This document shows, one piece after another, positions 794 through 25,001 of a DNA stretch of 25,548 bases. The position numbers were made by a program, and so were the translations under genes. The number at the start of each line of letters is the position of its first letter. Within the stretch, counting starts at the first letter, position 1. A model generated the notes under the pieces. The model was not told the DNA's origin. It did not search any database and saw nothing but the letters and a program-made list of their open reading frames with translations. The stretch comes from Trichormus sp. ATA11-4-KO1 (lineage in GTDB: Bacteria; Cyanobacteriota; Cyanobacteriia; Cyanobacteriales; Nostocaceae), in assembly GCA_019358915.1 (NCBI GenBank), contig JAHHIM010000050.1, positions 1 through 25,548 on the forward strand. Reading direction: 5' to 3'.

Positions 794-1039
794 ATGAATA
801 AAAAATGGGCTGTTAAAAGACTCACAGTCAATCTCACCTCAGGAGAAAGAGAAAAACTAGAACGCTACTGTGCAATGACAGGAAGGCCAGCAACCGATGT
901 TATTCGGGAATTACTCCGCTCTCTTGAGGTTGAAAAACTTGAAAAGGCTGAAGAAAATATTGAAAAGTCCGAAAATGTTGAAAAGGAAGAAGTCTCTGGT
1001 ATTTTGGATTCCTCTCAACAAACTCATGTTTATTGGTAG
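794..1039 (+). CDS. Ribbon-helix-helix (CopG-like) transcriptional regulator with low-complexity E/K tail
   Basis: Alternating strand KRLTVNL followed by two helices (EREKLERYCAMTG / ATDVIRELLRSL), the RHH pattern. Confidence 0.75.
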   Translation: MNKKWAVKRLTVNLTSGEREKLERYCAMTGRPATDVIRELLRSLEVEKLEKAEENIEKSENVEKEEVSGILDSSQQTHVYW

Positions 1040-1737: not shown

Positions 1738-4700
1738 ATGCCTTTAAATAATTTGAAACGCAAACGCGGCGTTACACTTACTACAAGAGGGTTACAAAAA
1801 CTTCAAGAAGCTAAGCGTAAATTAGAAGCAAAAGAAAATTATGGAAATAGCTATACGCTGGAAGAAATGAGTACACTTACTGGATTATATTCTAGTACAA
1901 TCTCAAAAGTACTCAATCGGGAAGGAGGCGTAGACAAAAAAACTCTTGACAAGTTATTTTTAGTTTTTAATTCACAAATAGATAAAAGTGATTATTTAAA
2001 CTCAAATACTCGGATAGATTGGGGAAATGCTACCGATCCATTAATTTTTTATGGACGTACAGACGAACTCGCTACTTTAGAGCAATGGATTCTTGATGAA
2101 CGCTGTCAATTAGTAGCACTATTAGGAATGGGTGGTATTGGTAAAACTGCTTTATCTGTGAAGATTTCCCAGCAAATTCAGTCAGATTTTGAATACATAA
2201 TTTGGCGATCGCTACGAGAAGCCCCACCCGTTAAATCTATTATTACTAACCTGATACAAGTTCTATCTGATGATCAGGAAGCAGAAAACAACTTATCAGA
2301 AAATTTAGGTGATAAAATATCACGATTAATCTATTACTTACAAAATACGCGCTGTTTAATAATACTTGATAATATAGAGTCAATTCTCCGCAGTGGTAGT
2401 AGAGCTGGACAATATCGAGAAGGATATGAAGGATATGGTGAGCTTTTTAAACAGCTAGGAGAAGCATCTCACACAAGCTGCTTGGTTCTGACTAGCCGAG
2501 AAAAACCTCAAGAAATAGCATTGTTGGAAGGAAAAAGACTACCTGTTCGCTCATTATCATTGAGTGGATTGAGTGTGCTGGAGGGACAAGAAATATTGAA
2601 AATTAAAGGGTTATCTGCAACAGAAAATGAATGGAAAATCATGATTGAACGTTATGCAGGTAATCCATTAGCTTTGAAGATAGTTGCCACAACCATTCAA
2701 GATATATTTGATGGTAATGTAACTGAATTTTTGGCCCAAAATACATCTGTATTTGGAGACATTCACGATATTTTAGATCAGCAGTTTGAACGCTTGTCAG
2801 ATTTAGAGAAGGAAATAATTTATTGGCTAGCAATTAATCGTGAATCAGTTACTTTATCTGAGTTACGACAAGACATCGTATTACCAAGACCAACACAAAA
2901 ATTACTGGAGTCTCTAGAATCTTTAGTGAGGCGATCGCTAATCGAAAAGGCTACGCTTACGCTAGTTGAAAGAAGTATAGCAACTTTCACTTTACAACCT
3001 GTAGTTATGGAGTATATAACTCAGGCATTGATAGAGCAGGTTTGTCAAGAAATTGTCACGGAGAATATCGATTTTTTGAGAAGCTACGTCCTGATGAAAG
3101 CGACCGCAAAAGATTACGTGAAAGAAGCTCAGATACGCCTGATTATTCAACCACTTATCAATGCTCTGCTTGTCATATTTAAAAGCAAAAGAGGTATAGA
3201 AAAACGAATAACTTCAATTTTAGCTAAGTTGCAAAACGAATCACCTCTTGAACCAGGGTACACGGGTGGAAATCTTCTCAATTTGCTTTGTCAACTACAG
3301 ATAGATTTAAAGGGCTATAATTTTTCTAATCTAACTATTTGGCAAGCAGACCTACAAAACGTGAAATTGCACAATGTAAATTTCCAAAACGCTAATTTAG
3401 CCAAATCTGTTTTTGCTGAAACCTTCGGTGGTATTTTGTCGGTAGCCTTTAGCCCTGATGGCAAATTTTTGGCTATAGGTGATACCAATGGTGAGATTCG
3501 TTTGTACCAAGTTTCAGATTGGAAACAACTTCTCACCTGTAAGGGACATACTAACTGGGTTTTATCACTGGCATTTAATTCTGATACCAGCATTATTGCT
3601 AGTGGTAGCACTGACCATACTGTAAAGTTATGGGATGTCATGACTGGTGAATGCCTTCAAACTTTGTGTGAACATGAGCATGAAGTTTGGTCAGTTGCTT
3701 TTAGCCCGGATGGTGACACACTAGCTAGTGGCAGTGATGACAAAACAGTCAAGCTATGGGATACTCACACTGGTAAATCACTGCAAACTTTCTCAGGACA
3801 CGCAAGTTGGGTACTTTCAATTGCCTTTGGTAAAGATGGGAAAACGCTAGTAAGTGGTAGTGATGACCAGACAGTGAAATTATGGAATATTAACACAGGT
3901 GAATGTCTTAAAACCTTTCAAGGACATTGTGATGGCATACGGTCAATTACTGTCAGTCCTGATGGTAAGATGCTGGCAAGTGGTAGTGAAGACCAGACAG
4001 TAAAGTTATGGAATATTAACACAGGTGAATGCCTGACAACTTTTCAAGGACATGCCAATGAAGTTTATTCAGTTACCTTTAATCCTCAAGGTGACTTTAT
4101 AGCGAGTGGCAGTTTTGACCAGACAGTAAAGTTATGGGATGTTAGTACTGGTGAATGCCTCAAAACTTTCCAAGGACATTCCGGTTGGATATTTTCGGTA
4201 GCTTTCAGTAAGCAGGGAAATTTTTTAGTCAGTGGTAGTTATGACCAAACTGTAAGATTGTGGTGTGTTAGCACAGGTCAATGCCTTAAAACCTTGCAGG
4301 GATATACTAATCAAGTACTCTCAGTCGCTTTCAATCCTGATGGGCAGACGTTAGCCAGTGGTAGTCATGACTCTTCGATCAGATTATGGGATGTTAGTAC
4401 AGGGGAATACCTGAAAACATTCCAGGGCCATCATGCTGCTGTTCGTTCAGTTGATTTCAGTCCAGATGGGTACACCCTGGTAAGTGGTAGTCATGACTCT
4501 TCGATCAGATTATGGGATGTCAGCACAGGGCAATGTCTGAAAACATTCCAGGGTCATCATGCTGCTGTGTGGTCAGTTGCCTTTAGTCCAGATGGGCAAA
4601 AACTAGCAACTAGTAGTGACGATCAAACCTTAAGATTGTGGGATGTTAACACAGGGCAATGCCTGAAAACATTTCAGGGTCATCGTGCTGCGGTGTGGTC

Positions 4701-5286
4701 AGTTGCTTTTAGTCTTCAAGGAACAATGCTAGCCAGTAGTTCTTTAGATCAGACAATCAAATTATGGGATGTCAGAACGGGCGAGTGTAAAAGAACCCTA
4801 GAGGGTCATACAGCTTGGGTTACATCTGTTACTTTCAGCCCAAATGGTGAACTACTCGTAAGTAGCAGTTATGATGGAATGATTAAGTTATGGCATGTCA
4901 GAACTTGTAAATGCTGTAAAATTTTGCAAGCAAGTACAGGTTGGTTAAAATCGATTGCATTTAGTCCAAATAGCCAGGTACTAGCTAGTTGCAGTCAAGA
5001 TAATAAAGTCAATTTGTGGGAAGTTAGTACGGGTAAATCTCTCATGACATTGCAAGGACATACGGGCAGGCTTTGGTCAGTCGTTTTTAGTCCTGATAAT
5101 CAGATTCTGGCTAGTGGTGGTGATGATGAGACAATTCGATTGTGGGATGTAGCAACAGGTAATTGCTTGAAAATTTTGAAAGCTGAGAAACTATATGAAG
5201 GGATGAATATTATAGGAATTACAGGTTTAACTACAGCGACTATCGCCACGCTGAAAGTTTTGGGAGCATATACTAGTAATAAATAA
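1738..5286 (+). CDS. STAND NTPase: N-terminal XRE-like HTH, NB-ARC domain, pentapeptide repeat, 14 WD40 repeats
   Basis: HTH-like [22 protein letters not shown]; Walker A GMGGIGKT; Walker B LIILDN; sensor LTSRE; GNPLAL (GxP); pentapeptide [18 protein letters not shown]; 14 countable GH..WD-type 42-aa repeats. Confidence 0.93.
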
Positions 5287-5451: not shown

Positions 5452-5556
5452 GTTAAACCCCTAACTGTCTAGGCATTACAGGAGGTTAAGGCTAACTGGT
5501 ATTACAGGCGCTTTGACTCCTTAATCCACAGGGGCTAGACAATTAGGGGAATTGAC
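5452..5556. repeat. Extended stem-loop downstream of the peptide gene
   Basis: CCCCTAACTGTCTAG (5458-5472) pairs with CTAGACAATTAGGGG (5535-5549) at 14/15; inner stem 5481-5492 with 5510-5520. Confidence 0.65.
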
Positions 5557-5596: not shown

Positions 5597-5794
5597 TTAA
5601 AAACCATCAACTTCGGTATCACTGGGTAATCCTTGCGCGAATTCAGTGGCCATAATTTTTTCTAAATCATCTGTTTCGATATCATTCAAGGTATCAAAAC
5701 TGGTTTCAAAACTAGCAAAACTAGTTTTAAGAAAGTTCTGGGAAAGCTCCATCTTTAAAGAATTTTGCTCGATTGTGTTATTTACTGTGATCAT
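5597..5794 (-). CDS. 65-aa acidic peptide, candidate RiPP-like precursor
   Basis: ATG preceded by a strong SD AAGGAG (5804-5809, 9-nt spacing); 93 bp downstream of the HDO-like gene on the same strand; 13 D/E versus 3 K; no Cys, His, Trp, Tyr or Arg. Confidence 0.75.
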   Translation of the reverse strand: MITVNNTIEQNSLKMELSQNFLKTSFASFETSFDTLNDIETDDLEKIMATEFAQGLPSDTEVDGF

Positions 5795-5887
5795 TGTTTG
5801 ATTCTCCTTAAAGTTATTTCAAGTAAGGCACATCTGAGTGATCGCTTAGACTAGTTGTCTAAAATCATTCATTTTTTATGTTAGCGG

Positions 5888-6655
5888 CTAACATGCAGAT
5901 TTCGCTTGCAGAGGTGTAGATAGTTTTAGTGGGTTCAATATCCCCTGGAGTTCTTCATCTGATATGTAGTCTCCTTTGGGTGGCATAAAGCGCAAAAGAG
6001 CAGTTTCATAACAGGCTCTCGCTACACGGATGCACTCCTCGCGATTAAGCTGTGCAACGACCCTAATTATGTCATCTACATGATTCACTTCAGAGCCAAG
6101 ACTGCTATGTAAACGCAGCCACCGCGTGGCATTGATTCCTGGTGATAGCAATGCCTCTACCTTCTGGATATACTCCTTACCTACAAATGTCCCTAAGCGT
6201 TCAGTCGCATAACAAAGTCCAATACAACCAATTGGATTGGCTGCTTCCACTACTTGGGTAAAGTAATTTACATAATGCTTGGTCGTAGATGGAATGAGTG
6301 CTTGCACTACAGCTTCAGCATCATACCCCATTGACTGAATATCAAGCAGAGCAATTTGTTCGTGACCTGCCTCCTCTCTAGCTTTCTGTGCAGCCCACTG
6401 TGCCAAATTCTCGCGCCCCAAAGCCGAGAAGTTTTCGGCTGCTTTCTCCATCAGTCTTGAAGTATGGCAGCTTAAATGGTAAGCACCTGCCAGTCGCCAC
6501 ACCCAACGTGTATAAGTTCTATCTGGTGGTCTGCGATCTGATTTTACTGCATAGTAGGCCTGTACTATTGCTTGGTCTAAAAGTTTGCGCGTTTTAGTTA
6601 ACGCATCTTCATCAATATCAATCATCTTTTGGGCAAAGGAATCACTGTTTTCCAC
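5888..6655 (-). CDS. Heme-oxygenase-like dimetal oxidase (iron-containing redox enzyme / CADD-PqqC-TenA fold) candidate
   Basis: Helical protein with E94-E95-x-x-H98...D105, Y149-x-x-E152 and H183...E189-x-x-H192, the order of diiron ligands in HDO enzymes. GTG start with a GAGG SD. Confidence 0.72.
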   Translation of the reverse strand: MENSDSFAQKMIDIDEDALTKTRKLLDQAIVQAYYAVKSDRRPPDRTYTRWVWRLAGAYHLSCHTSRLMEKAAENFSALGRENLAQWAAQKAREEAGHEQIALLDIQSMGYDAEAVVQALIPSTTKHYVNYFTQVVEAANPIGCIGLCYATERLGTFVGKEYIQKVEALLSPGINATRWLRLHSSLGSEVNHVDDIIRVVAQLNREECIRVARACYETALLRFMPPKGDYISDEELQGILNPLKLSTPLQAKSAC

Positions 6656-7245
6656 GGGATTAGCCTCAATGTATCTAAGTACTGTCAGCAGTTTCCATTA
6701 CTTCTTTGCCAGGCACAATCTATGCCAATTCAGTATCAGTTGAGAATCATTAACTTATGACTTTTTTTACAATCACATATTTTTGCCATCTTGGCAACTA
6801 CTTCTGCTACTAAAAATTTTAGGTGCGGATAGATTGCTAGTGAGATAATTTTGTGTAATTCCCACTTTTTCAGATGTATTGGACTTTATAGCCTTAAATT
6901 CAACGTTCAAATTAAATCATCCAGTTAAATAAACTTAATTAAAATTTAATCTTTCAAGAAATGCAATCATAATATAATATATGGCTTATTAATTTCTGAT
7001 TATTGAGAATAGTTTTGTAAACAAACACGTTGTTTCGTGGTTTGAGGACTGCTCGTGAAAAATTAAAACTTGCCTAAAAACCTAGGTTCTACAAGTTAGC
7101 TTTTAGCTTTACCGCATTAGCTTGTTTAAGCTGGCTTAAAAAGCTTAAGTTCAATCTTAAAATCTAGATTTTCACTTGCAAAAATGATGCATGTTGGAGA
7201 ATATTAATCATGTTCATGCAAATGAAAAAAATGAATGAGGTTTCA

Positions 7246-7431
7246 ATGCGTAAAATTTCCAGTTCTGACTCTTCTAGTAAACAATGGGTAGACGAACAAA
7301 TTACTATAGACTTAGCATTAGATGAAGCACAGCTACTTGAGCAGTATTGTAGCCAAACAGGTAAAGCTACACAGGATGTAATTCAAGAGCTTATCCAAAG
7401 ACTTCCTATGATGGAGTTACACGAAGGTTAA
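7246..7431 (+). CDS. Second RHH/CopG-like protein, paralog of 794-1039
   Basis: 17/42 identities with the first RHH in an ungapped manual alignment (W..T..L...E...LE.YC..TG....DVI.EL...L). Start placed at ATG 7246 after GAGG; the ORF is open from 7210. Confidence 0.7.
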   Translation: MRKISSSDSSSKQWVDEQITIDLALDEAQLLEQYCSQTGKATQDVIQELIQRLPMMELHEG

Positions 7432-7921: not shown

Positions 7922-9583
7922 TTAGTTACTCTCAAACTCTTTCACAATTGGGATGGCAACAGAAGGAATCTCCGTCACTAAGCGAAATGGAAACTTAGGT
8001 GTCGAAGCTACTTGAGCATAATCTGATGTCAGAAATACAGCATATTTTTCAGCTTCTGGAGTCAGCTGCGCAGCCATTGCCAAAACTATAGCTTTAACGA
8101 ATTTGCGAATATCTGCTGCTTGTTCACCAACAACTTCACCGCCACTAAAAGGTGTATTTGGTCTTCCTACTTGATCCAAAGTAGTACTGGGGTCTTTCAC
8201 ACTTAAATGAGTACCCCCAACTACACCAGCCAGCCATTTGGGAGATGGAATTTGATTAAATCCTACAATTTGTTCAGTCAAGGCTGGGGTGATTTTATCT
8301 GCGGAACTAGCTAATACTAAGGTAGGTACTTGTACTTTAGTTAAGCCAGTTTGACCAAACATCAGAGAAGTTGTGGGATTGAGCGCGATCGCCTGCTTGA
8401 TTCTGTCATCTCGCAGTTGGTAACTTGTTTCTGGCAATTCTTGAGCAACGCACTGGATAGTTTCTCCCAGACTCAAGCTAGCCAAATTACCCTGACACCG
8501 TTGTTTAAGAAATGTCGGTTGTAACTCGGCTCCAGCAGACACTAAAGCTGTACTACCACCAAAAGAATAGCCAATGATCATCACGTGATTGGTCGCCAGC
8601 TTTCCTTGTAGTGGGTGATTAGCTGTTTGGTTCAGCTTTTCTAGTTCATCGAGGACAAAACTCACATCTCGAGGACGCTCCAAAAACTCCTGAGGCTTTA
8701 AAAGCCTGGTTGTACCTTGTGCTGCTAAATTAGTATTTGTCTCATTACTACCAGGATGTTCTAAAGCCGCAATTACATAACCGTGAGATGCTAAATGTTC
8801 TGCGAGGTAGAGCAAATCAGTACGCACAGACCCCAAACCGTGACTTAAGACAATGACAGGTTTTTCAGCAGTTGCAGCAGTTGACCAGTAAAGATCAACA
8901 GGAATGTCCCGATCGCGTTTTTGGTCATTCCAATTAAAGTTGAGTACTTGTACTTGACCTATTCCTGGTTGGGTAGGGTCAAAAGGTAAAGAAATTTGCG
9001 GTGTTCTGGGGTCGAGTTGGGGGGCGATCGCCAACATAAACTGTTGAGTGCGCCAAAAGGCCGTATTTAAACTTCCTGCAACCTGTAAAGCCTTGGGTAA
9101 ATTAATTTCCAGGCGTTGACTGGGATAGGCAGCAATAAAATTGAGTAGAGAAAGACCCTGCGGTTCACTGGCTCCTAAGACAAATGCGGCTCTCAATGCT
9201 TGTACTCCAGCCTGATCTTTGCGGACTAAGGCCTCAGAAAGGTTGCTGAGAATCGTTGTCCCAACTTGGGTATTGAGTAACCTACTGAGAGTCACAACAT
9301 TTACAGGTACTCTCATCCTCAATGCTCCTAAAAAGAAGCGGCGTTGTTCTTCAGATAATCCCTTGGTGTAAAGTTCTAAACCCCTAGGAAATTCTCCAGT
9401 TTCCGCAGCTTTTTGCAACTCAGCCAGGGAGATAGATTCTGCAAACAGACCAAAACGCACTACAACCGTATCTGCCGCTTGTGCAGACGAATTTGCTCCA
9501 CAAAACTGGGTGAGAATGATACCGATGGCAAGCGCACAACTTTGACCAGCAACTACCTTGAGCTTTTTCCAAATACTTCTCAT
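7922..9583 (-). CDS. DUF1400-containing secreted alpha/beta hydrolase
   Basis: Signal peptide ending AQA-A; N-terminal DUF1400-like region; SHGLGS oxyanion motif; HPGS; nucleophile GYSFGG; GTH. Confidence 0.88.
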   Translation of the reverse strand: MRSIWKKLKVVAGQSCALAIGIILTQFCGANSSAQAADTVVVRFGLFAESISLAELQKAAETGEFPRGLELYTKGLSEEQRRFFLGALRMRVPVNVVTLSRLLNTQVGTTILSNLSEALVRKDQAGVQALRAAFVLGASEPQGLSLLNFIAAYPSQRLEINLPKALQVAGSLNTAFWRTQQFMLAIAPQLDPRTPQISLPFDPTQPGIGQVQVLNFNWNDQKRDRDIPVDLYWSTAATAEKPVIVLSHGLGSVRTDLLYLAEHLASHGYVIAALEHPGSNETNTNLAAQGTTRLLKPQEFLERPRDVSFVLDELEKLNQTANHPLQGKLATNHVMIIGYSFGGSTALVSAGAELQPTFLKQRCQGNLASLSLGETIQCVAQELPETSYQLRDDRIKQAIALNPTTSLMFGQTGLTKVQVPTLVLASSADKITPALTEQIVGFNQIPSPKWLAGVVGGTHLSVKDPSTTLDQVGRPNTPFSGGEVVGEQAADIRKFVKAIVLAMAAQLTPEAEKYAVFLTSDYAQVASTPKFPFRLVTEIPSVAIPIVKEFESN

Positions 9584-9731
9584 AAATAATCTTTACCAAT
9601 GAATACTTACGGGAATATAACGGAAATTTGTGTACTTGACTATCCCAGTAATTGCTGTAATATAAATCCTCTTTGAGATTTGATATTGAATTCTTGTAAA
9701 ATTTTAACTATCAGTTATTGTGGAAGTTTTG

Positions 9732-11243
9732 CTATTTGTTGGTAGGACAAGAGTTCTTTGTCCGGTTCTTCCAAATCCAACCCGGCGCTGGTTCACTAAT
9801 TTCTATCCAACCAGCTTCTTCTCTTCCTGTCACTGTCACCATAGTACCTGCTTTAATCACCTTGCCTGTTTTCTGGCGTCTGCGTCCAGACCCGGCGAAA
9901 GAGCGTAAGTTTGATGAGCTAGCAACAACCCGACAACTGTGTTTTTGTGCAGATGCATTCTTATTACTTGCTACTTGCTGAACTTTCTGTTGAGCAGGCT
10001 CCTCTAGTGAGGTTTGTGGTGATTGATTAGCAGACATGATGCTGAGGGTAACTAAAATAATCGCCGCGCCTGCCCCAATTAACAATCGTGGAGACTGACG
10101 AATAGAGTGTAAATTCAGCCGATAATTGTTGATTAATGTAGATGGATTGGCGGCAGTACTTGAGGTAACTAATGGCGTAGTTTCGTTATCTGGTGGGATA
10201 TAGCAAGGCTTGGTCAACTCCTGAAGATATTGCATCACCTTGGTTGTTGAGGTTAATGGCTGTATAGACCACGAGTAATTTGCATGATCTGGCGGGATGT
10301 AACAGGGCTTTGCCAGTTCCTGGATGTAGTGCATCGCTTTGGTTGCAGACATGTAGCCATCTGTCAAATATTGACCTACCATTTGATTCATGACGGCTGC
10401 AACAGCTGTTGGTGTATTGGCATGGGTAATCGAGGCGAGTGCTTGCAGTGCGTCTTTAGCTGACTGGTAGCGGTATTTAAAGTAATGCCGCACCATTTTA
10501 TTTAAAATAGCTGCCAATTGGTCGCTAACTTCGGTATGATGCTGCCAGACTATTTCCCCACTGACAGAATCCTCTCCCAACTGTATGGGACTCAAACCCG
10601 TCAGAGTTTGGATCGCAATCATTCCCAGAGCATAAATATCACTGCAAGGACGTGGTCTGCCTTGTCCTTGCTCACTCGGCATATAACCTGGAGTACCAAT
10701 AGCGATCGTCTCACTTTTGAGTTGTTCTGGAGTCATGATGGAGTAACTTTTGACTTGCTTAACAGCCCCAAAGTCTACCAAGACTATTTTGTTGTCTGAG
10801 CGACGGATTAAATTGTCGGGTTTAAGATCGCGATGGATTACCTGATTACTGTGAATAAATTCGAGGATGGGTAAGACTTCTTGCAGTAGTGTAATCACCT
10901 GTTCTTCACTCCACTTTGCCCCTGGTGGCATTTCTGACGACAGTGGATGTCCAACAATTAACTCCTGCACCAAGTAAAATTCTTCGTTTTCCTCAAAGTA
11001 AGCTAAGAGCCGGGGAATTTGGTCATGGTTGCCTAGCTTTTCTAATGTTTCGGCTTCCCTATTAAATAAGCGTCTAGCTGTTGGCAAAAATTCGGGATCG
11101 CTAGTAACAGGTTTAAGATGTTTGACGACGCAAGTAGGGTTCCCAGGACGGCGAGTATCTAGGGCTATATAAGTATGACCAAATCCGCCTTTACCTAATG
11201 GTTCGACTACTTGGTAACGCTGGTCTAGTAATCTGCCGAGCAT
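9732..11243 (-). CDS. Hanks-type Ser/Thr protein kinase with TM helix and C-terminal SH3b-like domain
   Basis: LGKGGFG, VVK, HRDLKPDN, DFG, GTPGY, SDIYALG; hydrophobic LLIGAGAAIILVTLSIM; NLRS...GWIEI...GWIW. Confidence 0.93.
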   Translation of the reverse strand: MLGRLLDQRYQVVEPLGKGGFGHTYIALDTRRPGNPTCVVKHLKPVTSDPEFLPTARRLFNREAETLEKLGNHDQIPRLLAYFEENEEFYLVQELIVGHPLSSEMPPGAKWSEEQVITLLQEVLPILEFIHSNQVIHRDLKPDNLIRRSDNKIVLVDFGAVKQVKSYSIMTPEQLKSETIAIGTPGYMPSEQGQGRPRPCSDIYALGMIAIQTLTGLSPIQLGEDSVSGEIVWQHHTEVSDQLAAILNKMVRHYFKYRYQSAKDALQALASITHANTPTAVAAVMNQMVGQYLTDGYMSATKAMHYIQELAKPCYIPPDHANYSWSIQPLTSTTKVMQYLQELTKPCYIPPDNETTPLVTSSTAANPSTLINNYRLNLHSIRQSPRLLIGAGAAIILVTLSIMSANQSPQTSLEEPAQQKVQQVASNKNASAQKHSCRVVASSSNLRSFAGSGRRRQKTGKVIKAGTMVTVTGREEAGWIEISEPAPGWIWKNRTKNSCPTNK

Positions 11244-11672
11244 GATACAGATAGGTGGACTGAGGTTAACTGTTAACTAGAATACACTTAACCCTGACAG
11301 GTTAATCCTCAACTATGTTTCAAGACTGAAAAATTACGTCAGTTCGACGAAATTCACCCTTGATCCTCCTGAACGGCTCTCCCTTCTAATTTTCCTCTGT
11401 GATTCATCAGTCAATCAGCCATGAAGCAAAAACCGGGTGAACTTGCAGTTTCCCGGTTGATCGATACCAATATCAAAACTTTTAGTAGTGAACTATTTCA
11501 CCTTACTTTCTCTTTCAGGAGAAATTGTGCTAAGTGCTGAAGGTGGAACTTTTGGTGTCACTGGCGATCGCTAATTTAGTAACATTAATGCCATGACCAT
11601 CTCACACAGTGCCTCTGGTCTTCAGACCAGATTAACAGACTATGGTTGTAGTCACAGCCAATGATGAATTAA

Positions 11673-11697
11673 AGGAGCATAGCAGTGCTGTGCTCCT
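11673..11697 (-). terminator. Probable fbaA terminator hairpin
   Basis: 11-bp stem with one mismatch (AGGAGCATAGC / GCTGTGCTCCT), about 20 bp after the stop. Confidence 0.6.
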
Positions 11698-11715
11698 ATT
11701 TAATTTTTGGCGAAA

Positions 11716-12795
11716 TTAAACTGTAGCAGATGCCTTAGTCACAACTTTGAGTTCGCCCTTGGCATACTTAGCGGCAAAATCTTCCAGAGAAACCTGCTTA
11801 ATCTTGCTAGCATTGCCAGCAGTGCCAAACTGTTCATAACGGTCAGCACAAACCTTCTGCATATATTTAATCGAAGGCTTGAGGAAGTGACGGGGGTCAA
11901 ATTCCTTGGGATTTGCTGCCAAAGCTTCACGCACAGCTGCGGTAATAGCCAGACGGTTATCAGTGTCGATGTTCACCTTACGCACACCGCACTTGATGCC
12001 TTTTTGGATTTCTTCTACAGGTACACCGTACGTTTCAGGAATTGCACCACCATACTGGTTAATTAGTGCAAGTAAGTCTTCTGGCACAGAAGAGGAACCG
12101 TGCATTACCAAGTGGGTGTTAGGCAGACGGCGGTGAATTTCTTCAATGCGGCTGATTGCCAAAATTTCCCCAGTCGGCTTGCGGGTAAACTTGTAAGCAC
12201 CATGGCTGGTACCGATGGCAACTGCCAAAGCATCTACTTGAGTTTGCTCCACGAAGTCCACAGCTTGGTCGGGGTCAGTTAGCAGCTGATCGCGATCAAG
12301 AGTACCTTCAAATCCATGACCATCTTCAGCTTCACCAGCACCAGTTTCTAGAGAACCCAAGCAACCAAGTTCACCTTCGACGCTAACGCCCAAGGAATGA
12401 GCTACGTTTACCACTTCACGGGTAACATTGACATTGTACTCGTAGCTAGCGGGGGTCTTAGCATCAGCTTCCAGCGAACCATCCATCATCACGCTGGTAA
12501 AGCCATTCTTAATTGCTGAGTAGCAAGTGGCAGGCGCATTACCATGATCTTGGTGCATGACAATGGGAATCTGAGGATAGGTTTCTGCTGCCGCCAAAAT
12601 CAAGTGGCGCAAAAAGTTTTCACCTGCATAAGCACGAGCGCCACGAGAAGCTTGTAAAATTACGGGGCTATCTGTCTCTGCTGCCGCCTTCAGAATTGCC
12701 TGAATCTGCTCCAAGTTGTTGACGTTAAAAGCTGGAATGCCGTAACCGTTTTCAGCCGCGTGATCCAGAAGCAGCCGCATTGGTACGAGCGCCAT
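11716..12795 (-). CDS. fbaA: Fructose-bisphosphate aldolase class II (Calvin-cycle type)
   Basis: [64 protein letters not shown]. Confidence 0.98.
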
Positions 12796-13058
12796 AGATA
12801 GTCCTCCTAATGTATTTTTCAGCTAGTCGGTGTGAGAGAAGCGTAATTGTTACGCTAATGTAATTGTTACGCTAATCTTAAGACTTTTTTCAACTTATAG
12901 GAAATTATAACTAGTGACGGGTGTTTATGTTGAAAAACTTTACGCCTTTAAGCCTGATTATAAGGGAATGGTGACTCCTCGCTGTCAAACATAAACAAAC
13001 CCCCAATTATCTCTTGGTCACTAATGACTCAGATTTCTTGTAATTTTTGAGATAAATA

Positions 13059-13130
13059 TGGGTCGCCCGGGATTCGAACCCGGAACTAATCGGTTAAAAG
13101 CCGAGTACTCTACCGTTGAGTTAGCGACCC
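13059..13130 (-). tRNA. trnK: tRNA-Lys(UUU), CCA not encoded
   Basis: Minus strand GGGTCGCTAACTCAACGGTAGAGTACTCGGCTTTTAACCGATTAGTTCCGGGTTCGAATCCCGGGCGACCCA folds as a cloverleaf with anticodon TTT. Confidence 0.97.
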
Positions 13131-13191
13131 TTCAGTTGCATTTCGCAACTTTGCTATAATAGCATAAACATCTATAGATTTGTAAAAGGCT

Positions 13192-14064
13192 TTAAAAAAA
13201 ATTTGCTGTTAATCTGACAAATGTCGTGCAGCTAGCCTTAGGAGCTAACACAGTCAGGTTTTCGCCAGTGTTGAGAGAGTTGCGGGGGGCAGTCCACGGT
13301 TCCAAACAGTAGAAGTCTTTGTCTTTGAGTGTCCAAAATACCAGTTTAGAATAAATCTGATCGTAATCTAGGGTAAGTTCTAGCTTACGGCTATGGTCTA
13401 TCACCGTAGCAGATTGACTAGTCAAATCACCAAAAGCAATATCGATTTCATCGCGGTTGAAATCAAAATTACCATTAAATGAGTAAATTTCCTTGGATTT
13501 TTGGTCTAGATACTGCTGGGAGGGAATTTTAAACTCTAGCTGAGTTTTACCATCACCAGTCAAAAAGTAAGGATGAAACCCGGCAGAAAATGGCAAAGGT
13601 GTGGATGAGAGATTTTTATACTGTTGCTGAATTTCTAGAGTGTTGCCTTGCAGTTTGTAGGTGAAAATTAATTGAAAATCAAAAGGATAAACTGCCTTGG
13701 TTTGTTCGTTGCTATTGAGTACAAGAGTCAGGCTAGCTTGATCTTGCGTTTGTTGCTCAGTTACTTCCCAGGGTAAATCACGGGCAAAGCCATGTTGTTT
13801 AAGAGTGTACTGCTGCCCATTATAGGTGTAAGAATTATCCGGTAAATTGCCACAAATAGGAAATAAAATCGGATTGCCACCTCTGACGCTTAAATCAGGA
13901 TGAGTAAAGCGTTCAGTATCCAGATAAAAAATTTCTTGCCCCTGGATACGCCAACGGGTGATGATGCCGCCTCTTTCTGGTACTACTTCGATTTGAGAGC
14001 CAGCACTTTCATCTGCAAGGATGTAAGTTTTGTATTGTTGCTGTTCAATGGCAATAGTAAACAC
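13192..14064 (-). CDS. Aldose 1-epimerase / galactose mutarotase-like protein
   Basis: RGGNPILFPICG, HGFAR, GFHPYF, FYCLEPW motifs. Confidence 0.92.
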   Translation of the reverse strand: MFTIAIEQQQYKTYILADESAGSQIEVVPERGGIITRWRIQGQEIFYLDTERFTHPDLSVRGGNPILFPICGNLPDNSYTYNGQQYTLKQHGFARDLPWEVTEQQTQDQASLTLVLNSNEQTKAVYPFDFQLIFTYKLQGNTLEIQQQYKNLSSTPLPFSAGFHPYFLTGDGKTQLEFKIPSQQYLDQKSKEIYSFNGNFDFNRDEIDIAFGDLTSQSATVIDHSRKLELTLDYDQIYSKLVFWTLKDKDFYCLEPWTAPRNSLNTGENLTVLAPKASCTTFVRLTANFF

Positions 14065-14133
14065 AAGTTTTAGTCCTTAATTTAGGGGGAAGTGTAAAGT
14101 GCTGAATCCTGAATACTCAACACTCAGCACTCT

Positions 14134-15168
14134 TTACTCGTCTTCTGCGAACACGAAACGATACAACTCACTAGGGTCTGGTTCGGGACTACTTTCGGCG
14201 AACTTAACGGCATCGTCGATTACTTCCTGAATTTTACGATCAATGGCTTTGAGTTCTGCCTCATCTGCTAAGTTTTGCTCAACTAAATAAGCGGCAAATT
14301 TCTTAATTGGGTCGCGGGAAAACCAAAATTCTTTCTCGGCTTTGCTGCGCATTTCATCTGGGTCTGCCAAGGAGTGACCCCGAAAACGGTAAGTCAAGGC
14401 TTCAATTAATGTGGGACCTTCACCTGCACGGGCGCGGGCTACAGCTGCTTGAGCGACGGCTCGCACCGCTAACACGTCCATACCGTCTACTTCCACGCCT
14501 ACCATGTTAAACACGCTGGCTTTTTTGTAAATCTCTGGCTGGGAAGTTGCCCGTTCGTGGGACATACCAATTGCCCATTTATTATTTTCTACTACGAAAA
14601 TAATTGGCAATTTCCATAGAGATGCCATATTCAATGTCTCGAAAAACTGACCGTTGTTAGCAGCACCATCACCAAAAAAGCAAGCTGTTACTTGGTCAGC
14701 ATTTTTGTCTCCCATGACTTCGCGGCGGTATTTGCTTGTGAAAGCTGCTCCGGCTGCCACAGGAATACCTTCAGCCACAAAAGCATAACCACCTAGTAAG
14801 CCATGCTCCGCAGAAAACATGTGCATGGAACCACCGCGCCCTTTGCTGCAACCTGTGGCTTTGCCAAATAATTCTGCCATGACTTCTCTAGCTGGGACAC
14901 CAGCACTGAGAGCATGAACGTGGTCGCGGTAGGTGCTGGAAACAAAATCTTCACCTGGTCGCATCGCTTGGATAACACCAGTAGAAACGGCTTCTTGCCC
15001 GTTGTATAGGTGGACAAAGCCAAACATTTTGCCCCTGTAGTACATTTCAGCGCACTTGTCTTCAAATAAGCGCCCTAATACCATGTCTTCATACAACCGC
15101 AACCCTTCTGCTTTGGTGATCTGAGTAGTGGCAGCATTAAATGTAGGTAACGTGCGTTCTTGAACCAT
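14134..15168 (-). CDS. pdhA: Pyruvate dehydrogenase E1 alpha subunit
   Basis: [21 protein letters not shown] motif GDGA...[13 protein letters not shown]. Confidence 0.98.
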
Positions 15169-15931
15169 TATTTTTTAGTATCCCTATGTAAAACTGAAAT
15201 TTACCATCTCAAATAAGTTGCTCTCAGACAAAATCTGCTTTTCACAAGCTAGAGTGTAGAGTCAACCACCAAAATTTATGCACCAAAAAGAGTTAAAAGC
15301 AATAGAGGGGAAACAATGGGTGAATTTTTCATTTTTCCAACCACGCTCGGCGAGGCTCTCACCCCGATGGCAACAGATATCCCCTGAGTATTCCCACTTC
15401 TGACTCCTATTCATAGGCTATCAATCAGGATAGCTTGGTTTCTGCATATCCATTAACAATTTATAAAAAATGGACAGGGGAATTTTGGGATCTAGCTAGA
15501 TAGTTGTCATTAAGGTTGATTCAGCATATAATTTTATACTTTCAATCAACATCTACCCTTGCCAGCAAAGCTTCTTTAACTACATACTTAGAGAAATCAG
15601 TGAACAAAAAGTAATTATAAGTGCTTATAAATACAACATGATTACTACTAAATAACGGTAATTATGTTTTATGGTGTTGAAGGCTGATGACAGTTCTTAG
15701 AGGCAACAATACTAAGAATTAAAACAAAGTATCAGCGTTTCCTAGGCAAATGCAAAATATTAGCACTAGAATATGACTCAAATTTTAGGAAGGCACAAAA
15801 TCAATTGTTGCAATATACACTTATAGTGTAAGTTCGACACGGTATTATTCACCGTACTATTATGGCACGGTTTTACATGCCTGGAATGCTCTAGGTGAAT
15901 TATGTTGATCACGGTGCAGGGGAAGTAGACT

Positions 15932-18226
15932 GTGCGAATTCCGCTAGATTACTACCGAATTTTGGGACTACCGTTAGCGGCAAGTGATGAACAGTTGCGG
16001 CAGTCATACAGCGATCGCATTGTGCAATTGCCGCGACGAGAGTATTCTCAAGCAGCAATTTCTTCTCGCAAACAACTTATAGAAGAAGCTTACGTGGTTT
16101 TATCAAATCCTCAGGAACGTAGCAGTTACAATCAGCTTTATCTTGCCCATGCCTATGGCCCTGACGGCAATGCTAATGCTACTGTTGCCGTGGGAAACCA
16201 CACAGACGGCAACAAAGATGATCCTGACACCCAGAGTCTGAGCATTGACATTTCCCAAGCGGAATTAGTTGGTGCTTTATTAATTCTGCAAGAACTGGGA
16301 GAATATGAACTTGTATTGAAATTAGGTCATAATTACCTAACTAATGCCAGTGGTGTAGCAGTCGCCAGAATGGGCAATAATCTAGCAAGTGAAGAATTTC
16401 TCGAAAATTCTGAATATCCAGATATTGTGCTGACGGTGGCGTTGGCTTGTTTAGAACTTGGTCGGGAGCAATGGCAACAAGGTCACTATGAAAATGCGGC
16501 TATTTCTCTAGAAACTGGCCAAGAACTACTATCCCGTGAAGGGTTATTTGCCAGCGTGCAGGCGGAAATGCAAGCTGATCTTTATAAATTGCGCCCGTAT
16601 CGGATTTTGGAATTGCTGGCACTACCAGAAGAAAAGACTGCGGAACGACGCCAAGGTCTAACATTTTTACAAAACATCTTGAGCGATCGCGGTGGCATTG
16701 ATGGCACTGGCAATGATCAATCAGGATTAAATATAGATGATTTTTTACGGTTTATCCAGCAAATACGTAATTATTTAACAGTTGCAGAACAGCACAAGCT
16801 ATTTGAAGCAGAAAGCAAACGTCCTTCGGCTGTGGCTACTTATTTGGCGGTTTATGCCCTACTAGCAAGGGGGTTCACTCAACGTCAACCCGCTTTGATT
16901 CGTCAGGCAAAGCAAATGCTGATGCGTCTGGGTAAGCGCCAAGATGTGCATTTAGAACAGTCACTATGTGCGCTATTACTAGGGCAAACCGAAGAAGCCA
17001 CCCGTGTTTTAGAACTAAGTCAAGAATACGAAGCCTTAGCTTTTATTCGAGAAAGATCCTTAGACTCTCCAGACTTGCTACCGGGACTATGTTTATATGC
17101 CGAACAGTGGTTACAGCATGAAGTTTTTCCCCATTTTCGAGATTTAGCTAATCAGCCAGCCTCGCTGAAAGATTACTTTGCGAATCAACAAGTGCAAGCT
17201 TATTTAGAAGCCCTACCTACGGATGCAGAAACCACTAATGAATGGGCTGTGATCAATCGTCAGGCTTTTTCCCAACATCCCCTTCACAGCAATCATTCCC
17301 CGGCTGATTCTCAACAATTACCTCACGGGAGAATACCTGAACCAGATTTACCAGAAACACCAAACCACAGAAGACCCTCAGATGCCAACTTCTCGCCAAC
17401 TAACTGGAATACACCACTAGGTCAAGTTACCAATCAAGCAAAACCAAAGAAAAATGTGGATTCTCCTGCTGAACGTACAGCTACAGCCCCTAATCACAAC
17501 CTGAATGGCACAGGTAAGACTACTCCATCTCGTCAAGTCAAAAAGCGTAGGAGGCGAAAGCCGAGTCAAGTTGTCAGCCGTGAGGGCGGCGCAAATAATT
17601 CTCAGAGGCGAGCTTTTACTAACACATTAGAAGGAAAAACACGACTTGTTTGGACAGTGTTTGCTTCTTTAGCAGGTGTATTAGTGTTTTGGTTATTAGT
17701 TTCCACAACGTTTGGATGGTTAAAAAATCTGTTTTTCCCCGCACCATCTTTGCAAGGTGAACAGTTATTTGTGCAAATCAATGAACCACCGATAACTATT
17801 CCTGATAAAAGCAGTAAATTGGAACCACCAGCAGGTTCTTTAACAGATGCAACTGCACAAGAAGTGATTCAAGTTTGGCTATCTACTAAAGCCGCAGCTT
17901 TGGGGCCAAATTATGACATTAGCAGTTTACAAGATATTTTAATCGGTTCATCTTTATCTCAATGGCGACTACTTGCCCAACAGGAAAGGGCACAGAACCG
18001 CTATCGGTCATACAACCACACAGTGAAGGTGGAATATGTCAATCAGAATGCGGAGCAAGCAGTGGCAGTAGCTACAGTCAGGGAATTAACACAGTTCTAT
18101 GAAAATGCACAGTTAAAAAATGTTTCTGATGAAACTTTGCGTGTCCGATATTCTTTAATTCGACAAGCAGGTATGTGGCGCATCCAGAATATGTCAGTGA
18201 TTAATCAGATCAGCATGAATTTTTAG
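15932..18226 (+). CDS. ftn2: Cell division protein Ftn2/ZipN (ARC6 homolog: J-like domain, TM, C-terminal IMS/DUF4101)
   Basis: RIPLDYYRILG start, DLYKLRPYRILELL, DLLPGLCLYAEQWL, a single TM helix, C-terminal VRYSLIR..W.I. Confidence 0.92.
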   Translation: MRIPLDYYRILGLPLAASDEQLRQSYSDRIVQLPRREYSQAAISSRKQLIEEAYVVLSNPQERSSYNQLYLAHAYGPDGNANATVAVGNHTDGNKDDPDTQSLSIDISQAELVGALLILQELGEYELVLKLGHNYLTNASGVAVARMGNNLASEEFLENSEYPDIVLTVALACLELGREQWQQGHYENAAISLETGQELLSREGLFASVQAEMQADLYKLRPYRILELLALPEEKTAERRQGLTFLQNILSDRGGIDGTGNDQSGLNIDDFLRFIQQIRNYLTVAEQHKLFEAESKRPSAVATYLAVYALLARGFTQRQPALIRQAKQMLMRLGKRQDVHLEQSLCALLLGQTEEATRVLELSQEYEALAFIRERSLDSPDLLPGLCLYAEQWLQHEVFPHFRDLANQPASLKDYFANQQVQAYLEALPTDAETTNEWAVINRQAFSQHPLHSNHSPADSQQLPHGRIPEPDLPETPNHRRPSDANFSPTNWNTPLGQVTNQAKPKKNVDSPAERTATAPNHNLNGTGKTTPSRQVKKRRRRKPSQVVSREGGANNSQRRAFTNTLEGKTRLVWTVFASLAGVLVFWLLVSTTFGWLKNLFFPAPSLQGEQLFVQINEPPITIPDKSSKLEPPAGSLTDATAQEVIQVWLSTKAAALGPNYDISSLQDILIGSSLSQWRLLAQQERAQNRYRSYNHTVKVEYVNQNAEQAVAVATVRELTQFYENAQLKNVSDETLRVRYSLIRQAGMWRIQNMSVINQISMNF

Positions 18227-18354
18227 GTTGGAAAAAACTAAAATTAATGCGGTTGTGTTTAATTCTCCGTCAGTTGTTATTTGATGGTGAGCAAGTTGTT
18301 TACTTGTGACAACTAACACGAAATCATGACTGAGTTTAATTCTTATTGCTGTTG

Positions 18355-19344
18355 ATGACAGAAACTTTAGTTCATGCTTATACACCCTTGATTCTGTGGA
18401 TGAGTCTGGGGCTATTAATATTGAAAATATTACCTACGTGGTTACCACATTTCCTAGGTCGTGGTCTTTACTGGGTAGGAGTGCCGTTAGAACTGTTGGC
18501 ACTGGCGCGAAAATCTCAGCAGACAGAATTGAGTGGTGTAGAAAGTTGGCCCCTACTAGCATCAGTAGTTACTGTAGGGGCGCTGCTGGTGGGTTTGTTG
18601 GTGGCATTACTAATTGTGTGGGGATGGCAAAAAATCGTATGCCACTGGTTGCAGCCAGATTTAGATGAAGCACTTGCTAGTTATTGGCTTGACCCCTCCA
18701 CTCAAGGCAGTTTTGTGCTAGCTGCTGTGTTGGGAAATACAGGTTTTGTGGGGTTAGCGATCGCTCCCTCTTTTATCCAAGCTGACTTTCTTAACTGGGT
18801 TGTACTGTACAGCATCACCCACAACGTTGTTGGCCCCTATAGTCTGGGAGTATTAATTGCTAGTTACTTCAGTCATGCAAAATCTCCAAATCGCTGGTGG
18901 ATGCAATTGCGGGATCTGCTGACTGTACCTCCTTTATGGGCTTTTATCATTGGGATTCTTACTCAACAAGTACAACTGCCAGAAATCATGGAATCAGGGC
19001 TTCAAGGGTCGGTGAACATCGTTATCGCCTGTGCTTTTCTGTTAACTGGTATCCGCTTAGGCCAACTTCAGGGGTGGCAAAACTTTCAATTTGCGGTGAT
19101 CCCCTCTGTGATCAAGGTTGTAATTATGCCACTACTCGTCGGTTTACTCACAACTTGGTTACTCGGCTTATCAGGCGATCGCCGCTTGGCAATGGTCTTG
19201 ATGTCGGGAATGCCCTCGGCTTTTGCTGGTCTAATTTTGGCAGAAGAATACAATCTCAACCGCGATTTGATTGCTAGCAGTATTATCCTCTCTACACTCT
19301 TGCTACTCCTGCTTCTTCCTTTGTGGATTAAGGTTTTCAGCTAA
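18355..19344 (+). CDS. AEC (auxin efflux carrier) family membrane transporter
   Basis: Multiple TM helices; GNTGFVGL and MPSAF motifs. Start taken at ATG 18355; the ORF is open from 18346. Confidence 0.88.
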   Translation: MTETLVHAYTPLILWMSLGLLILKILPTWLPHFLGRGLYWVGVPLELLALARKSQQTELSGVESWPLLASVVTVGALLVGLLVALLIVWGWQKIVCHWLQPDLDEALASYWLDPSTQGSFVLAAVLGNTGFVGLAIAPSFIQADFLNWVVLYSITHNVVGPYSLGVLIASYFSHAKSPNRWWMQLRDLLTVPPLWAFIIGILTQQVQLPEIMESGLQGSVNIVIACAFLLTGIRLGQLQGWQNFQFAVIPSVIKVVIMPLLVGLLTTWLLGLSGDRRLAMVLMSGMPSAFAGLILAEEYNLNRDLIASSIILSTLLLLLLLPLWIKVFS

Positions 19345-19354
19345 CTTTAACCTA

Positions 19355-19428
19355 AATGTTATGAACTTATGACATTTAATTAGCTTCTATAGGTACTAAT
19401 AAGCCACAATGTCATGAAATAATGACAT
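19355..19428. promoter_or_regulatory. Two copies of a palindromic candidate operator ATGTYAT-N6-ATGACAT
   Basis: AATGTTATGAACTTATGACAT (19355-19375) and AATGTCATGAAATAATGACAT (19408-19428), 18/21 identical. Confidence 0.5.
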
Positions 19429-19656
19429 ATTGATCCCGAAAAAGCTGAAAATTCGTACAGCAGGTAAAAAAGCACCTTGAGACCCCTTGATCCCTACCAA
19501 GGTTTACTGGTTAATATTTACTTAACAACAGGACTCCTCCGATCCCGAAAAAATGCTGATCTTGGCATTACCCAGGAATCGAGTAGTAACCCTCAATTTA
19601 AAAACAGACTAAAAATCTTAAAAACTGGGCAAAACCAGAAGTCAGAGATAAAAAAT

Positions 19657-19850
19657 GTGAGTTCGACAAGTGGAAAAAACCCCTCTCCAAACCTCTCCCC
19701 TGCCAGGAGGAGCCACTGCGTTGCGCGGGTTCCCCGCGTTGTAGCAAGTGGCGTTAGAGGCTTCACAACCTTAATTTATCGTTGAGCTTTCAAGATATTT
19801 AAGCCCCTCTCCGCTTCGGAGAGGGGTTGGGGAGAGGTTATCGAATTCAC
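19657..19850. repeat. MITE-like dispersed repeat containing a nested GC-rich hairpin repeat
   Basis: Ends GTGAGTTCGA / TCGAATTCAC (9/10 inverted); CCTCTCCCC / GGGGAGAGG arms; hairpin CCCCTCTCCG-CTT-CGGAGAGGGG (19804-19826); nested unit 19711-19754. Confidence 0.7.
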
Positions 19851-19944
19851 GTTAAAAAAAATCATCTGGGGTGGATGACATTTTATAAAGCATTCTCTAA
19901 CCCGGGGAAATCATTGACTTTTCAAACTACTGGAGGCCAAATTA

Positions 19945-21174: not shown

Positions 21175-21249
21175 AATACTAAAGTGCTGAGTGCTGAGTA
21201 TAAACCCAGTTGCTTCCAGTTACTTCATGTCCTAAACATGGAATTATTC

Positions 21250-21280
21250 CCCGCTACAGCAATGCTGTAGCGGGTTTTTT
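21250..21280 (+). terminator. Rho-independent terminator
   Basis: CCCGCTACAGC-AAT-GCTGTAGCGGG followed by TTTTTT. Confidence 0.9.
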
Positions 21281-21381
21281 AGTTATGCTCTTTGGTAAGG
21301 GTACGGTATACGCACAATTGCATCATTCCCGCCTCCCAATGAATTGGGAGTTTCATAGCAAAAGTCCACTTTAGTGGACTT

Positions 21382-21420
21382 ACTCAGCACTCAGCACTCA
21401 ACACTCAGCACTCAGCACTC
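21382..21420 (+). repeat. STRR-type heptamer tandem repeat (ACTCAGC)n
   Basis: About 5.5 copies of ACTCAGC/ACTCAAC; inverted copies at 21184-21200; related short arrays near 14098-14131 and 11527-11540. Confidence 0.85.
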
Positions 21421-21423
21421 TAA

Positions 21424-22863: not shown

Positions 22864-23048
22864 CGAGGTATCCTAACTGTTTACTTGAGGATTTTAGCAT
22901 TTGTACAGTGTATGAACTTAAAAAAAAATAAGTAAGTAATATCCTCTGGTTAATGTGTGATTAACTACTATAAAGCATAGTGAGAATTTTTTGAGATTTT
23001 GAGAACACTTTGGTGGTAAAAGCTGGGAATTGAAAATCCCAAATTGGT

Positions 23049-24731: not shown

Positions 24732-25001
24732 TAAAACCGCCCCCTGTATATCCCATCTAAACAAGTTTGGGTGGAGAAGAAAGCAGGGCATAATCTGTGC
24801 CGCTTTCCTGTTTACTGTGGTTACTCATATCAAATAGACTACAAGCAGAAGAAAGCAAGTACTTACATTCATAGTCTTACATATACTTCAGTAAATTATG
24901 CTGAAATAAATTATGGGCTAGGAGATTGCAACCAGTAGCATGATAATTAATTAAAGAGAATTCACAAATTAAACTAACAACCTAAAAGTTATATATTACT
25001 A

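Follow-up and report, generated by a model that had tools for sequence, protein, structure and literature searches.

The main outcome of this analysis is that the gene of a heme-oxygenase-like dimetal oxidase (HDO), a small peptide gene and the gene for a large sensor-regulator together form a conserved cyanobacterial cassette, which is real and, as far as the literature was searched, undescribed. The copy considered here lies in the window, by which we mean the whole stretch of 25,548 nucleotides of Trichormus sp. ATA11-4-KO1 that was analysed (contig JAHHIM010000050.1). Taken jointly, the fold, ligand set, gene pairing, selection, natural fusion and RiPP context, the predicted docking of the peptide and its role as substrate are given high confidence. 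What, then, would such a modified peptide be for? The answer put forward, tentatively and with slightly less than even confidence, is self-signalling in filamentous cyanobacteria, in which the diiron HDO would turn the C-terminus of a ribosomal peptide into a signal and an NLR-like transcription factor of HTH-NB-ARC-WD40 type would read it, the cassette and the WD40 region being swapped as a block. A search of full-text literature, in which subscription journals are thinly covered, returned no paper that treats the enzyme family, HDO-NHLP clusters or the STAND cassette; these proteins may be included in the HDO list given in the supplement of PMC13185094 and in the network of PMC11363339.

The enzyme gene (5888..6655, minus strand) encodes 255 amino acids from a GTG, with M11 as an alternative start, and is followed 93 nt later by the co-oriented gene for an acidic, precursor-like peptide of 65 amino acids (5597..5794, minus strand), both reading frames being as the preliminary description gave them. 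The same description held that the peptide has the stronger ribosome-binding site, which agrees with a strong Shine-Dalgarno site read from the sequence, AAGGAG (5804..5809, minus strand), 9 nt before the ATG, against only a weak GAGG (6664-6667) 8 nt ahead of the GTG of the enzyme; a site of the GGAG/AGGA/GAGG type precedes the peptide in 68 of 80 loci, where starts were chosen by the best site. A genome search found a single copy each of enzyme and peptide in this organism, and the closest locus elsewhere is that of Nostocales cyanobacterium LEGE 11386, at 91% identity, which gives the window the look of DNA from a heterocystous species. Convergent with the pair is the STAND regulator gene (1738..5286, plus strand; 1182 amino acids), and on the far side the upstream, promoter region of the cassette (6699..6915, minus strand) is conserved in relatives. 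A promoter and terminator scan of the window gave nothing above chance, including no sigma-70 site above chance in this upstream region. Two accessory RHH-like proteins accompany the locus, one divergent from the enzyme gene (7210..7431, plus strand) and resembling the other, which is encoded upstream of the STAND gene (794..1039, plus strand; Pfam RHH_1 E 0.009, below cutoff); they form one cluster, and the family is present in 30 of 81 loci. Inverted repeats lie upstream of the STAND gene (1157-1240, 30-nt arms, 70%) and between it and the peptide gene (5458-5549, 15-nt arms, 93%). The rest of the window (7922-25436) holds ordinary neighbours, namely two DUF1400 alpha/beta hydrolases, a Ser/Thr kinase, fructose-bisphosphate aldolase, aldose epimerase, an E1 dehydrogenase, an ARC6-like division protein, phosphoglucomutase and an MFS fragment. 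One metatranscriptome run (share 0.05) contained contigs of relatives spanning 5636-5898 and 6105-6276, which are not counted as evidence of expression because the reads are possibly DNA.

The AF2 model of the enzyme (pLDDT 88.8) matches heme-oxygenase-like structures, as had been claimed from the letters alone, and Foldseek concurs; by its predicted seven-helix fold the protein falls within the HDO superfamily. Structure comparison of the model gave Z 20.1 against 3DDE (rmsd 3.0, 220 residues aligned), 16.9 against HrmI, 16.8 against CADD, 15.0 against UndA and 13.3 against BesC, and phmmer found 3DDE at E 7e-8. The candidate ligands E95, H98, E152, H183, E189 and H192 are present at the positions first proposed for them. 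Across 120 of 120 close homologs none of them changes apart from position 189, which is E in 98 and D in 22, and each is kept in 94-105 of 108 distant homologs. From its sequence this set fits the motif E-H-E-H-(D/E)-H, described on three core helices as the HDO ligand motif (PMC11363339), and by analogy metal-dependent oxidation with O2 is the likely activity. The window enzyme matched no family in Pfam, NCBIfam or PADLOC, Pfam PF14518 included; homologs do score above the cutoff of 28.9 for that family (L125 44.7, P0146 43.9, L159 35.1), and the nearest Atlas cluster (0.97) has PF14518 in 36% of its members. A profile built from 45 distant homologs and run against the PDB with E up to 0.01 returned only 3DDE and MboA (E 0.0032). 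Both genes of the pair appear from their codons to be under purifying selection, with dN/dS between the window and five relatives of 0.19-0.22 in the enzyme gene and 0.27-0.61 in the peptide gene. For the last 30 peptide codons it is 0.17-0.35, as measured in the four pairs that have synonymous changes in that stretch.

The association of the two genes is tight. The expectation that the small ORF would be conserved beside enzyme homologs was borne out, since in 79 of 80 loci the enzyme is immediately followed by a relative according to a profile seeded with 71 motif-bearing ORFs of those same loci, and a second profile picks up 94 ORFs spread over 80 of 80. Since such counts are partly circular, 201 whole genomes of the family were searched, a sample that overlaps the loci behind the peptide profile; 58 of them contain the enzyme and 54 the peptide, and of the 78 peptide matches all but four lie at most 1.5 kb behind a co-oriented enzyme match (74 of 78). 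Nine full enzymes had no peptide match, and of the eight that were fetched seven have a divergent peptide of 86-102 amino acids. The spread is patchy, with the enzyme family in 4 of 401 genomes of the phylum, and plasmid copies exist. In three assemblies of Gloeotrichia echinulata the enzyme and peptide are naturally fused into one protein of 348 amino acids. Fusion is confined to this cluster, the window pair being separate genes, unlike a Borosin-like fused precursor. At the Gloeotrichia-type locus L082 (1501-2547, P0065) the fusion arose via deletion of the stop codon and the intergenic region, and P0122 may be a second, frameshifted fusion. Five loci (L028, L029, L042, L045 and L051) carry tandem, slightly different peptide copies; two of them, L042 and L051 (6000-11000), have two facing HDO genes with three peptide copies each between them, together with a GNAT acetyltransferase.

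Within the peptide itself the aligned relatives divide, as anticipated, into a constant acidic helix that ends in Gly and a variable tail. The leader-like helix (5630..5674, minus strand; residues 41-55) has the pattern [DE]LExI[MI]xxEFxxG, in which L44, I47, E51 and G55 are each at least 90% conserved in 47 peptides. The candidate core that follows (5600..5629, minus strand; residues 56-65, LPSDTEVDGF) represents a tail of about ten residues, fixed in length, variable in sequence and hydrophobic at its free C-terminus, the last residue in 94 ORFs being mostly F (39), V (15), L (12), M (8), Y (8), W (6) or H (3). The N-terminus is variable, the whole length ranging from 45 to 147 amino acids across relatives, and 23 of 80 relatives have a hydrophobic, signal-like N-terminus that the window peptide lacks. 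Two sites of modification had been proposed from the first reading. The C-terminal LPSDTEVDGF stays a candidate; the Phe/Ser repeats (residues 21-33) were rejected because their conservation is poor and many relatives lack them, which leaves the tail as the candidate site. The further suggestion that the peptide serves as a redox partner is unlikely, since the window peptide contains no Cys or His. It matched no Pfam, NCBIfam or PADLOC family, has no usable Atlas match, and showed no NHLP leader (TIGR03793) in NCBIfam and Pfam searches.

Across the 80 cyanobacterial loci no gene for leader removal or export is conserved within 6 kb, and neither an S53 protease nor a halogenase occurs in any of them (0/80). 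Reliance on host proteases is common among RiPP clusters; for the thiovarsolins it has been proposed (PMC6511847). Seven loci (L062, L064, L065, L068, L070, L073 and L076) have precursors of about 145 amino acids whose start resembles a signal peptide and whose tails carry Cys-Cys (..ARCCL). In 19 of 81 loci (for example L065:3887-4453) a 188-aa protein with no Pfam or NCBIfam match is encoded upstream of the HDO, often with an AraC-type regulator, and occasional extra tailoring candidates are a PhyH-type dioxygenase and a class-III aminotransferase (L052:7195-7995, L114:783-1637, L112:911-2254). Other distant HO-like proteins in Nostocaceae (L117-L119) lie next to acyl-CoA ligase or GNAT-like genes and have no peptide.

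Metagenomes scanned with a profile built from 12 distant homologs yielded 79 loci, and it is here that a RiPP context appears. The tree groups 37 distinct sequences into a high-GC clade of their own (support 1.00), separate from the cyanobacterial type, the window enzyme being 44% identical over 245 residues to that of L125. An NHLP precursor ORF lies beside the enzyme in 37 of 42 high-GC loci, many of which are near-duplicates representing perhaps ten lineages, and 7 of 10 precursors of distant homologs that were tested pass the TIGR03793 cutoff. Their cores are short and end in DYDPGF, SGDPGF, NAAVGF, AVVF, AACF, KMMW or PTVL. The same 42 loci include a Trp_halogenase-family gene in 26, an S53 protease in 21 and an Asp beta-hydroxylase in 11, and at L187 an acidic non-NHLP peptide ending in TDINFGF adjoins a halogenase. 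No homology of the cyanobacterial peptide to NHLP precursors or cores was detected (E > 0.28), so that substrate status is carried over through the enzyme and not through the peptide; the NHLP and acidic-helix leaders are unrelated, and the feature they have in common is the hydrophobic free C-terminus that follows. By analogy, these clusters lend strong support to reading the peptide as a substrate. Several loci (L125, L130, L183-L186, L191, L195-L197 and L200-L203) look like complete, undescribed RiPP clusters with an HDO, an NHLP precursor (core ..DPGF), one or two halogenase-family genes and an S53 protease, some adding an Asp beta-hydroxylase and an anthranilate phosphoribosyltransferase-like gene. 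Others combine the HDO with two NHLP precursors (..YNAAVGF and ..YNAAVVF), an S53 protease and a B12 radical-SAM RiPP C-methyltransferase (L180-L182; L180:899-1410 and 3132-4997), or place it in a YcaO/NHLP-exporter cluster where a convergent precursor has the core HYPSVYPTVL after GG (L159:2612-10798).

How the peptide might meet the enzyme was modelled with enzyme residues 11-246, peptide residues 26-65 and two irons. Binding, which the preliminary description had supposed, is supported as a prediction by a complex score of 0.89 against 0.41 for the best of three controls, where the score mark is one that 116 of 157 solved pairs attained but only 2 of 215 mismatched ones, figures that apply only roughly to the present case. 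The runs share at least 67% of contacts, with a partner pLDDT of at least 71. In the model I47 sits on helix 1 of the enzyme, in contact with residues 31 and 34, while L56-D59 lie on residues 41-43, W53, R54, 221-225 and Y230; peptide residues 54-65 lie in the interface, whose enzyme side includes E95, H98, E152, H183 and E189. The model lends support to a bound peptide whose tail would reach the metal site, and predicts a conserved, enzyme-bound leader with a variable core, as in RiPP systems. The pairing, selection, fusion, NHLP clusters of distant homologs and this complex make a RiPP-type substrate the most likely role of the peptide, the modified site being its hydrophobic last residue and not the Phe/Ser repeats.

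The chemistry proposed involves the free carboxylate of the last residue. On an observed base of fold, ligand set, tight pairing, selection, natural fusion and RiPP clusters near distant homologs, the acidic helix 41-55 and LPSD (56-59) are predicted to dock on the enzyme, helix 1 receiving the leader, and to thread the tail to the metal site. As substrate carboxylates are described on Fe1 in both UndA (PMC13108848) and MboA, the latter oxidising the last residue of its peptide (PMC13185094), the C-terminal carboxylate would then bind iron and the C-beta-H be oxidised. The last residue is often aromatic, which makes a beta-gamma desaturation of the MboA type impossible, and the most likely course by analogy is oxidation at C-beta-H that leads to decarboxylation with enamide formation or to alpha-beta desaturation. 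Given the substrate role, oxidative decarboxylation (Phe to styrylamide, -46 Da) is ranked first, although with less than even expectation; desaturation without loss of CO2 (-2 Da) is ranked second, at a rather lower one, and hydroxylation or N-C-alpha cleavage come below both.

Could the peptide instead be a partner that is never modified and that, as activator, inhibitor or cofactor-loading lid, merely fills the active site of an enzyme acting on a small molecule? A stable predicted complex and a natural fusion would suit a subunit equally well, and the strong ribosome-binding site of the peptide and the lack of conserved processing genes in the cyanobacterial loci point the same way. This is nevertheless improbable, given that unrelated leaders precede similar hydrophobic tails, that tandem peptide copies differ slightly, that other RiPP enzymes and proteases lie beside the distant homologs, that the peptide is free of Cys and His, and that the HDOs studied so far are described as needing no protein effector (PMC13108848), though MboA uses the redox partner MboB. 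A separate doubt concerns the window copy alone, which may be decaying in a family that otherwise functions as proposed. DNA alignment with L001-L004 reveals a dead remnant (6656..6698, minus strand) of an N-terminal extension of about 15-30 residues just upstream of the GTG, broken by a 1-nt insertion also present in L001 and by a TGG>TAG change found in the window only; the remnant runs from an ATG at 6698 past the TAG at 6677-6675 and also contains the weak GAGG site of the GTG. The frameshift and nonsense change would favour decay, as would the fact that in distant homologs the lost extension is confidently predicted to fold as a three-stranded sheet (whether this sheet might be an RRE was put to a fold search, in which the HO domain took up the matches). 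Decay is still unlikely, if slightly less so than a non-substrate peptide, when set against a dN/dS of 0.20 relative to L001, which has the same frameshift, the P0002 enzyme, which starts at the same place, the intact candidate ligands and a complex model in which the peptide docks without the extension. Selection on the rest of the enzyme is unchanged, and on that ground the copy is probably alive.

The substrate reading leaves the third gene to be accounted for. The preliminary description spoke of a minimal RiPP class; the enzyme-peptide pair holds, and "minimal" is incomplete because the convergent STAND, a third conserved gene of the unit, had been missed. A STAND homolog follows the peptide convergently in 70 of 80 loci, some being partial or up to 5 kb away, and two of the ten loci without one end at contig edges; none was seen in the 42 high-GC loci. 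From its sequence the window protein has the layout of a STAND ATPase, with an N-terminal output domain (a Cro/C1-like HTH, ~1-90; HTH_26 only weakly matched, below cutoff at E 0.005), NB-ARC (above cutoff, E 6.5e-15) and a C-terminal repeat sensor of WD40 propellers (~560-1170; 14 repeats in Pfam), and is a candidate receptor and transcription factor. That the STAND is exclusive to the cassette was considered and rejected, the HTH occurring in 160 of 201 family genomes; among the 150 HTH matches listed, 65 lie within 9 kb of an enzyme match, and a further 359 fall beyond the listing. Four further NB-ARC paralogs in the same genome (contigs C7, C14, C49 and C1; 51-57% identity) match from residue 87-94 and have no HTH. 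Of 20 sister STANDs fetched without the enzyme, 14 face an unrelated cassette that consists of a ThDP enzyme related to ScyA (above cutoff for NF035927), a FabH-like protein and mostly a GDSL lipase (L085-L093, L096, L099, L100, L102 and L104). These look like orphan signal cassettes, which we take to be possibly of furanolide type.

The STAND proteins appear to be mosaics. In a tree of the WD40 half the 13 ThDP-type STANDs analysed form one clade (support 100), and for the HTH-NB-ARC half such a clade is rejected (p-AU 1e-86, on 43 of 71 rows picked after quick trees had been seen). The distance between ThDP-type and HDO-type STANDs is 0.28-0.38 up to about residue 640, where it steps to 0.45-0.51 and stays flat. 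Across 51 HDO loci, which leave out L076 with its co-oriented STAND, distance in the peptide tail correlates with that in WD40 (Spearman 0.59; 0.53 given NB-ARC) and less with that in NB-ARC (0.32; 0.09 given WD40), the Mantel-type statistics (0/500 permutations) being overstated because the loci are kin. The cassette upstream region, 72-76% identical between the window and L003-L005 over 117-148 nt, tracks the HTH type of the STAND across loci. Where ThDP and HDO cassettes have matching upstream DNA (8 pairs, about two independent events) the HTHs are nearly identical, at a distance of 0.084 versus 0.369, and the WD40s unrelated, at 0.482 versus 0.480; no shared operator k-mer stood out upstream of both cassette types. 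The mosaic and the promoter tracking together point to a cassette that is exchanged along with WD40 as one contiguous block, set between a promoter on one side and an HTH-NB-ARC switch on the other, and a WD40 that travels with the cassette while the HTH travels with the promoter suggests a signal-receptor pair. In the self-signalling reading the modified tail, freed by host proteases, would bind WD40 and switch NB-ARC, and the HTH would then act on the cassette's own promoter. If the peptide is indeed a substrate, sensing of its modified tail by the STAND is mildly favoured. It is a plausible though not quite probable corollary that promoter and HTH-NB-ARC switch stay fixed and the block exchanged is either one of several peptide types or the unrelated ThDP/FabH small-molecule cassette.

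The most serious competitor shares everything up to this last step. The modified peptide may be an ordinary natural product, a metal binder, inhibitor or allelochemical, and the STAND no more than a regulator of the pathway with some other stimulus, in which case its WD40 covaries by linkage; as the docking and chemistry would be the same, the weight given to this, distinctly lower than that on sensing of the tail and still considerable, is simply that of the final step being wrong. The WD40 end adjoins the peptide gene, so that covariation can arise from linkage alone; biosynthetic cassettes of unrelated kinds are found beside sister STANDs, and the high-GC clusters do without a STAND. Against linkage alone, the distance between ThDP and HDO STANDs changes in a step and not by gradual decay, and the promoter, on the far side of the cassette, follows the HTH. 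Very improbable, by comparison, is an NLR-like immune or conflict system in which the STAND monitors the peptide as decoy or guardee during infection. Its architecture of STAND and WD40, plasmid copies and patchy spread (4/401 in the phylum, 58/201 in the family) would suit such a role, yet the N-terminal domain resembles a DNA-binding HTH and not a killing effector, PADLOC found no match save an overlap of WD40 with one long model, and the sister STANDs pair with small-molecule cassettes.

Self-signalling by a modified peptide, and the substrate reading on which it builds, can be set beside several known systems. About a dozen HDOs are described as characterised, with a tie to RiPPs for VarO only, by genetics (PMC13108848, PMC6511847), and VarO is the only RiPP example cited in the 2026 HDO review, as far as the part available goes. 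The first reading is to be corrected in that an HDO acting on a RiPP has this genetic precedent (PMC6511847); the enzyme-peptide family itself was not found in the literature searched. VarO, of the thiovarsolin cluster, is likewise heme-oxygenase-like and needed for dehydrogenation of a RiPP residue; it differs as an accessory to YcaO-TfuA, known by genetic evidence only, that acts on an Arg side chain, on the precursor or after cleavage (PMC6511847). Set against that description, the HDO is here the only conserved enzyme and leader binding is predicted. A close relation in chemistry is MboA, the mangotoxin HDO (PDB 9YPI/9YPM; PMC13185094), described as an HO-like diiron 3H/3C enzyme that acts on the C-terminal residue of a peptide with the carboxylate on Fe1. 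It is the only characterised HDO matched by the family profile, has the same ligand spacings (E..H +3, E..E +57, H..H +9) and carries an acidic residue after the first His, here D in 114 of 120. Its substrate, however, is a non-ribosomal tripeptide made by an ATP-grasp enzyme, it needs MboB, it is described with no leader and no STAND, and its proposed base Tyr82 aligns to K91 of the window enzyme. UndA, BesC, CADD, HrmI and SznF resemble the window enzyme in fold (Z 12.5-16.9) and in the E-H-E-H-(D/E)-H motif (PMC13108848, PMC11363339); they differ in acting on fatty acids, amino acids or themselves, in their identity of 9-14%, and in having neither an N-terminal three-stranded sheet nor a precursor gene. 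NHLP (proteusin-type) clusters with a flavin halogenase, such as srp with SrpE/SrpI, recall the distant homologs that adjoin TIGR03793 precursors and Trp_halogenase-family genes, and in both the cores are short and end in an aromatic residue; an NHLP leader is lacking in the window peptide, and the term "heme oxygenase" is absent from the main text of that report in the form available (PMC12537861).

For the regulator, there is a parallel with cassettes of the nostoclide/cyanobacterin type, in that a ThDP enzyme related to ScyA and a FabH-like gene are flanked by the sister STANDs. Nostoclides are described as cell-density mediators in Nostoc punctiforme in a report whose available part mentions neither WD40 nor a receptor (PMC9324945). 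If the STAND reads the product, this would provide a receptor class for cell-density signalling, the mediators of which are described as largely unknown (PMC9324945), and one of the many cyanobacterial NB-ARC-WD40 proteins that are orphans would gain a ligand. An HDO guided by a leader, forming with its substrate a pair of two genes, could, moreover, yield a residue-tolerant modification of peptide C-termini.

The agr system and the RRNPP systems Rap-Phr and PlcR-PapR are peptide-receptor specificity cassettes, where an adjacent peptide and sensor domain covary and the active part of the peptide is C-terminal. Some precursors of the cassette described here share with them a signal-like N-terminus (23/80); unlike them, it has an HTH-NB-ARC-WD40 STAND as its predicted receptor and a diiron oxidase as its predicted maturase.
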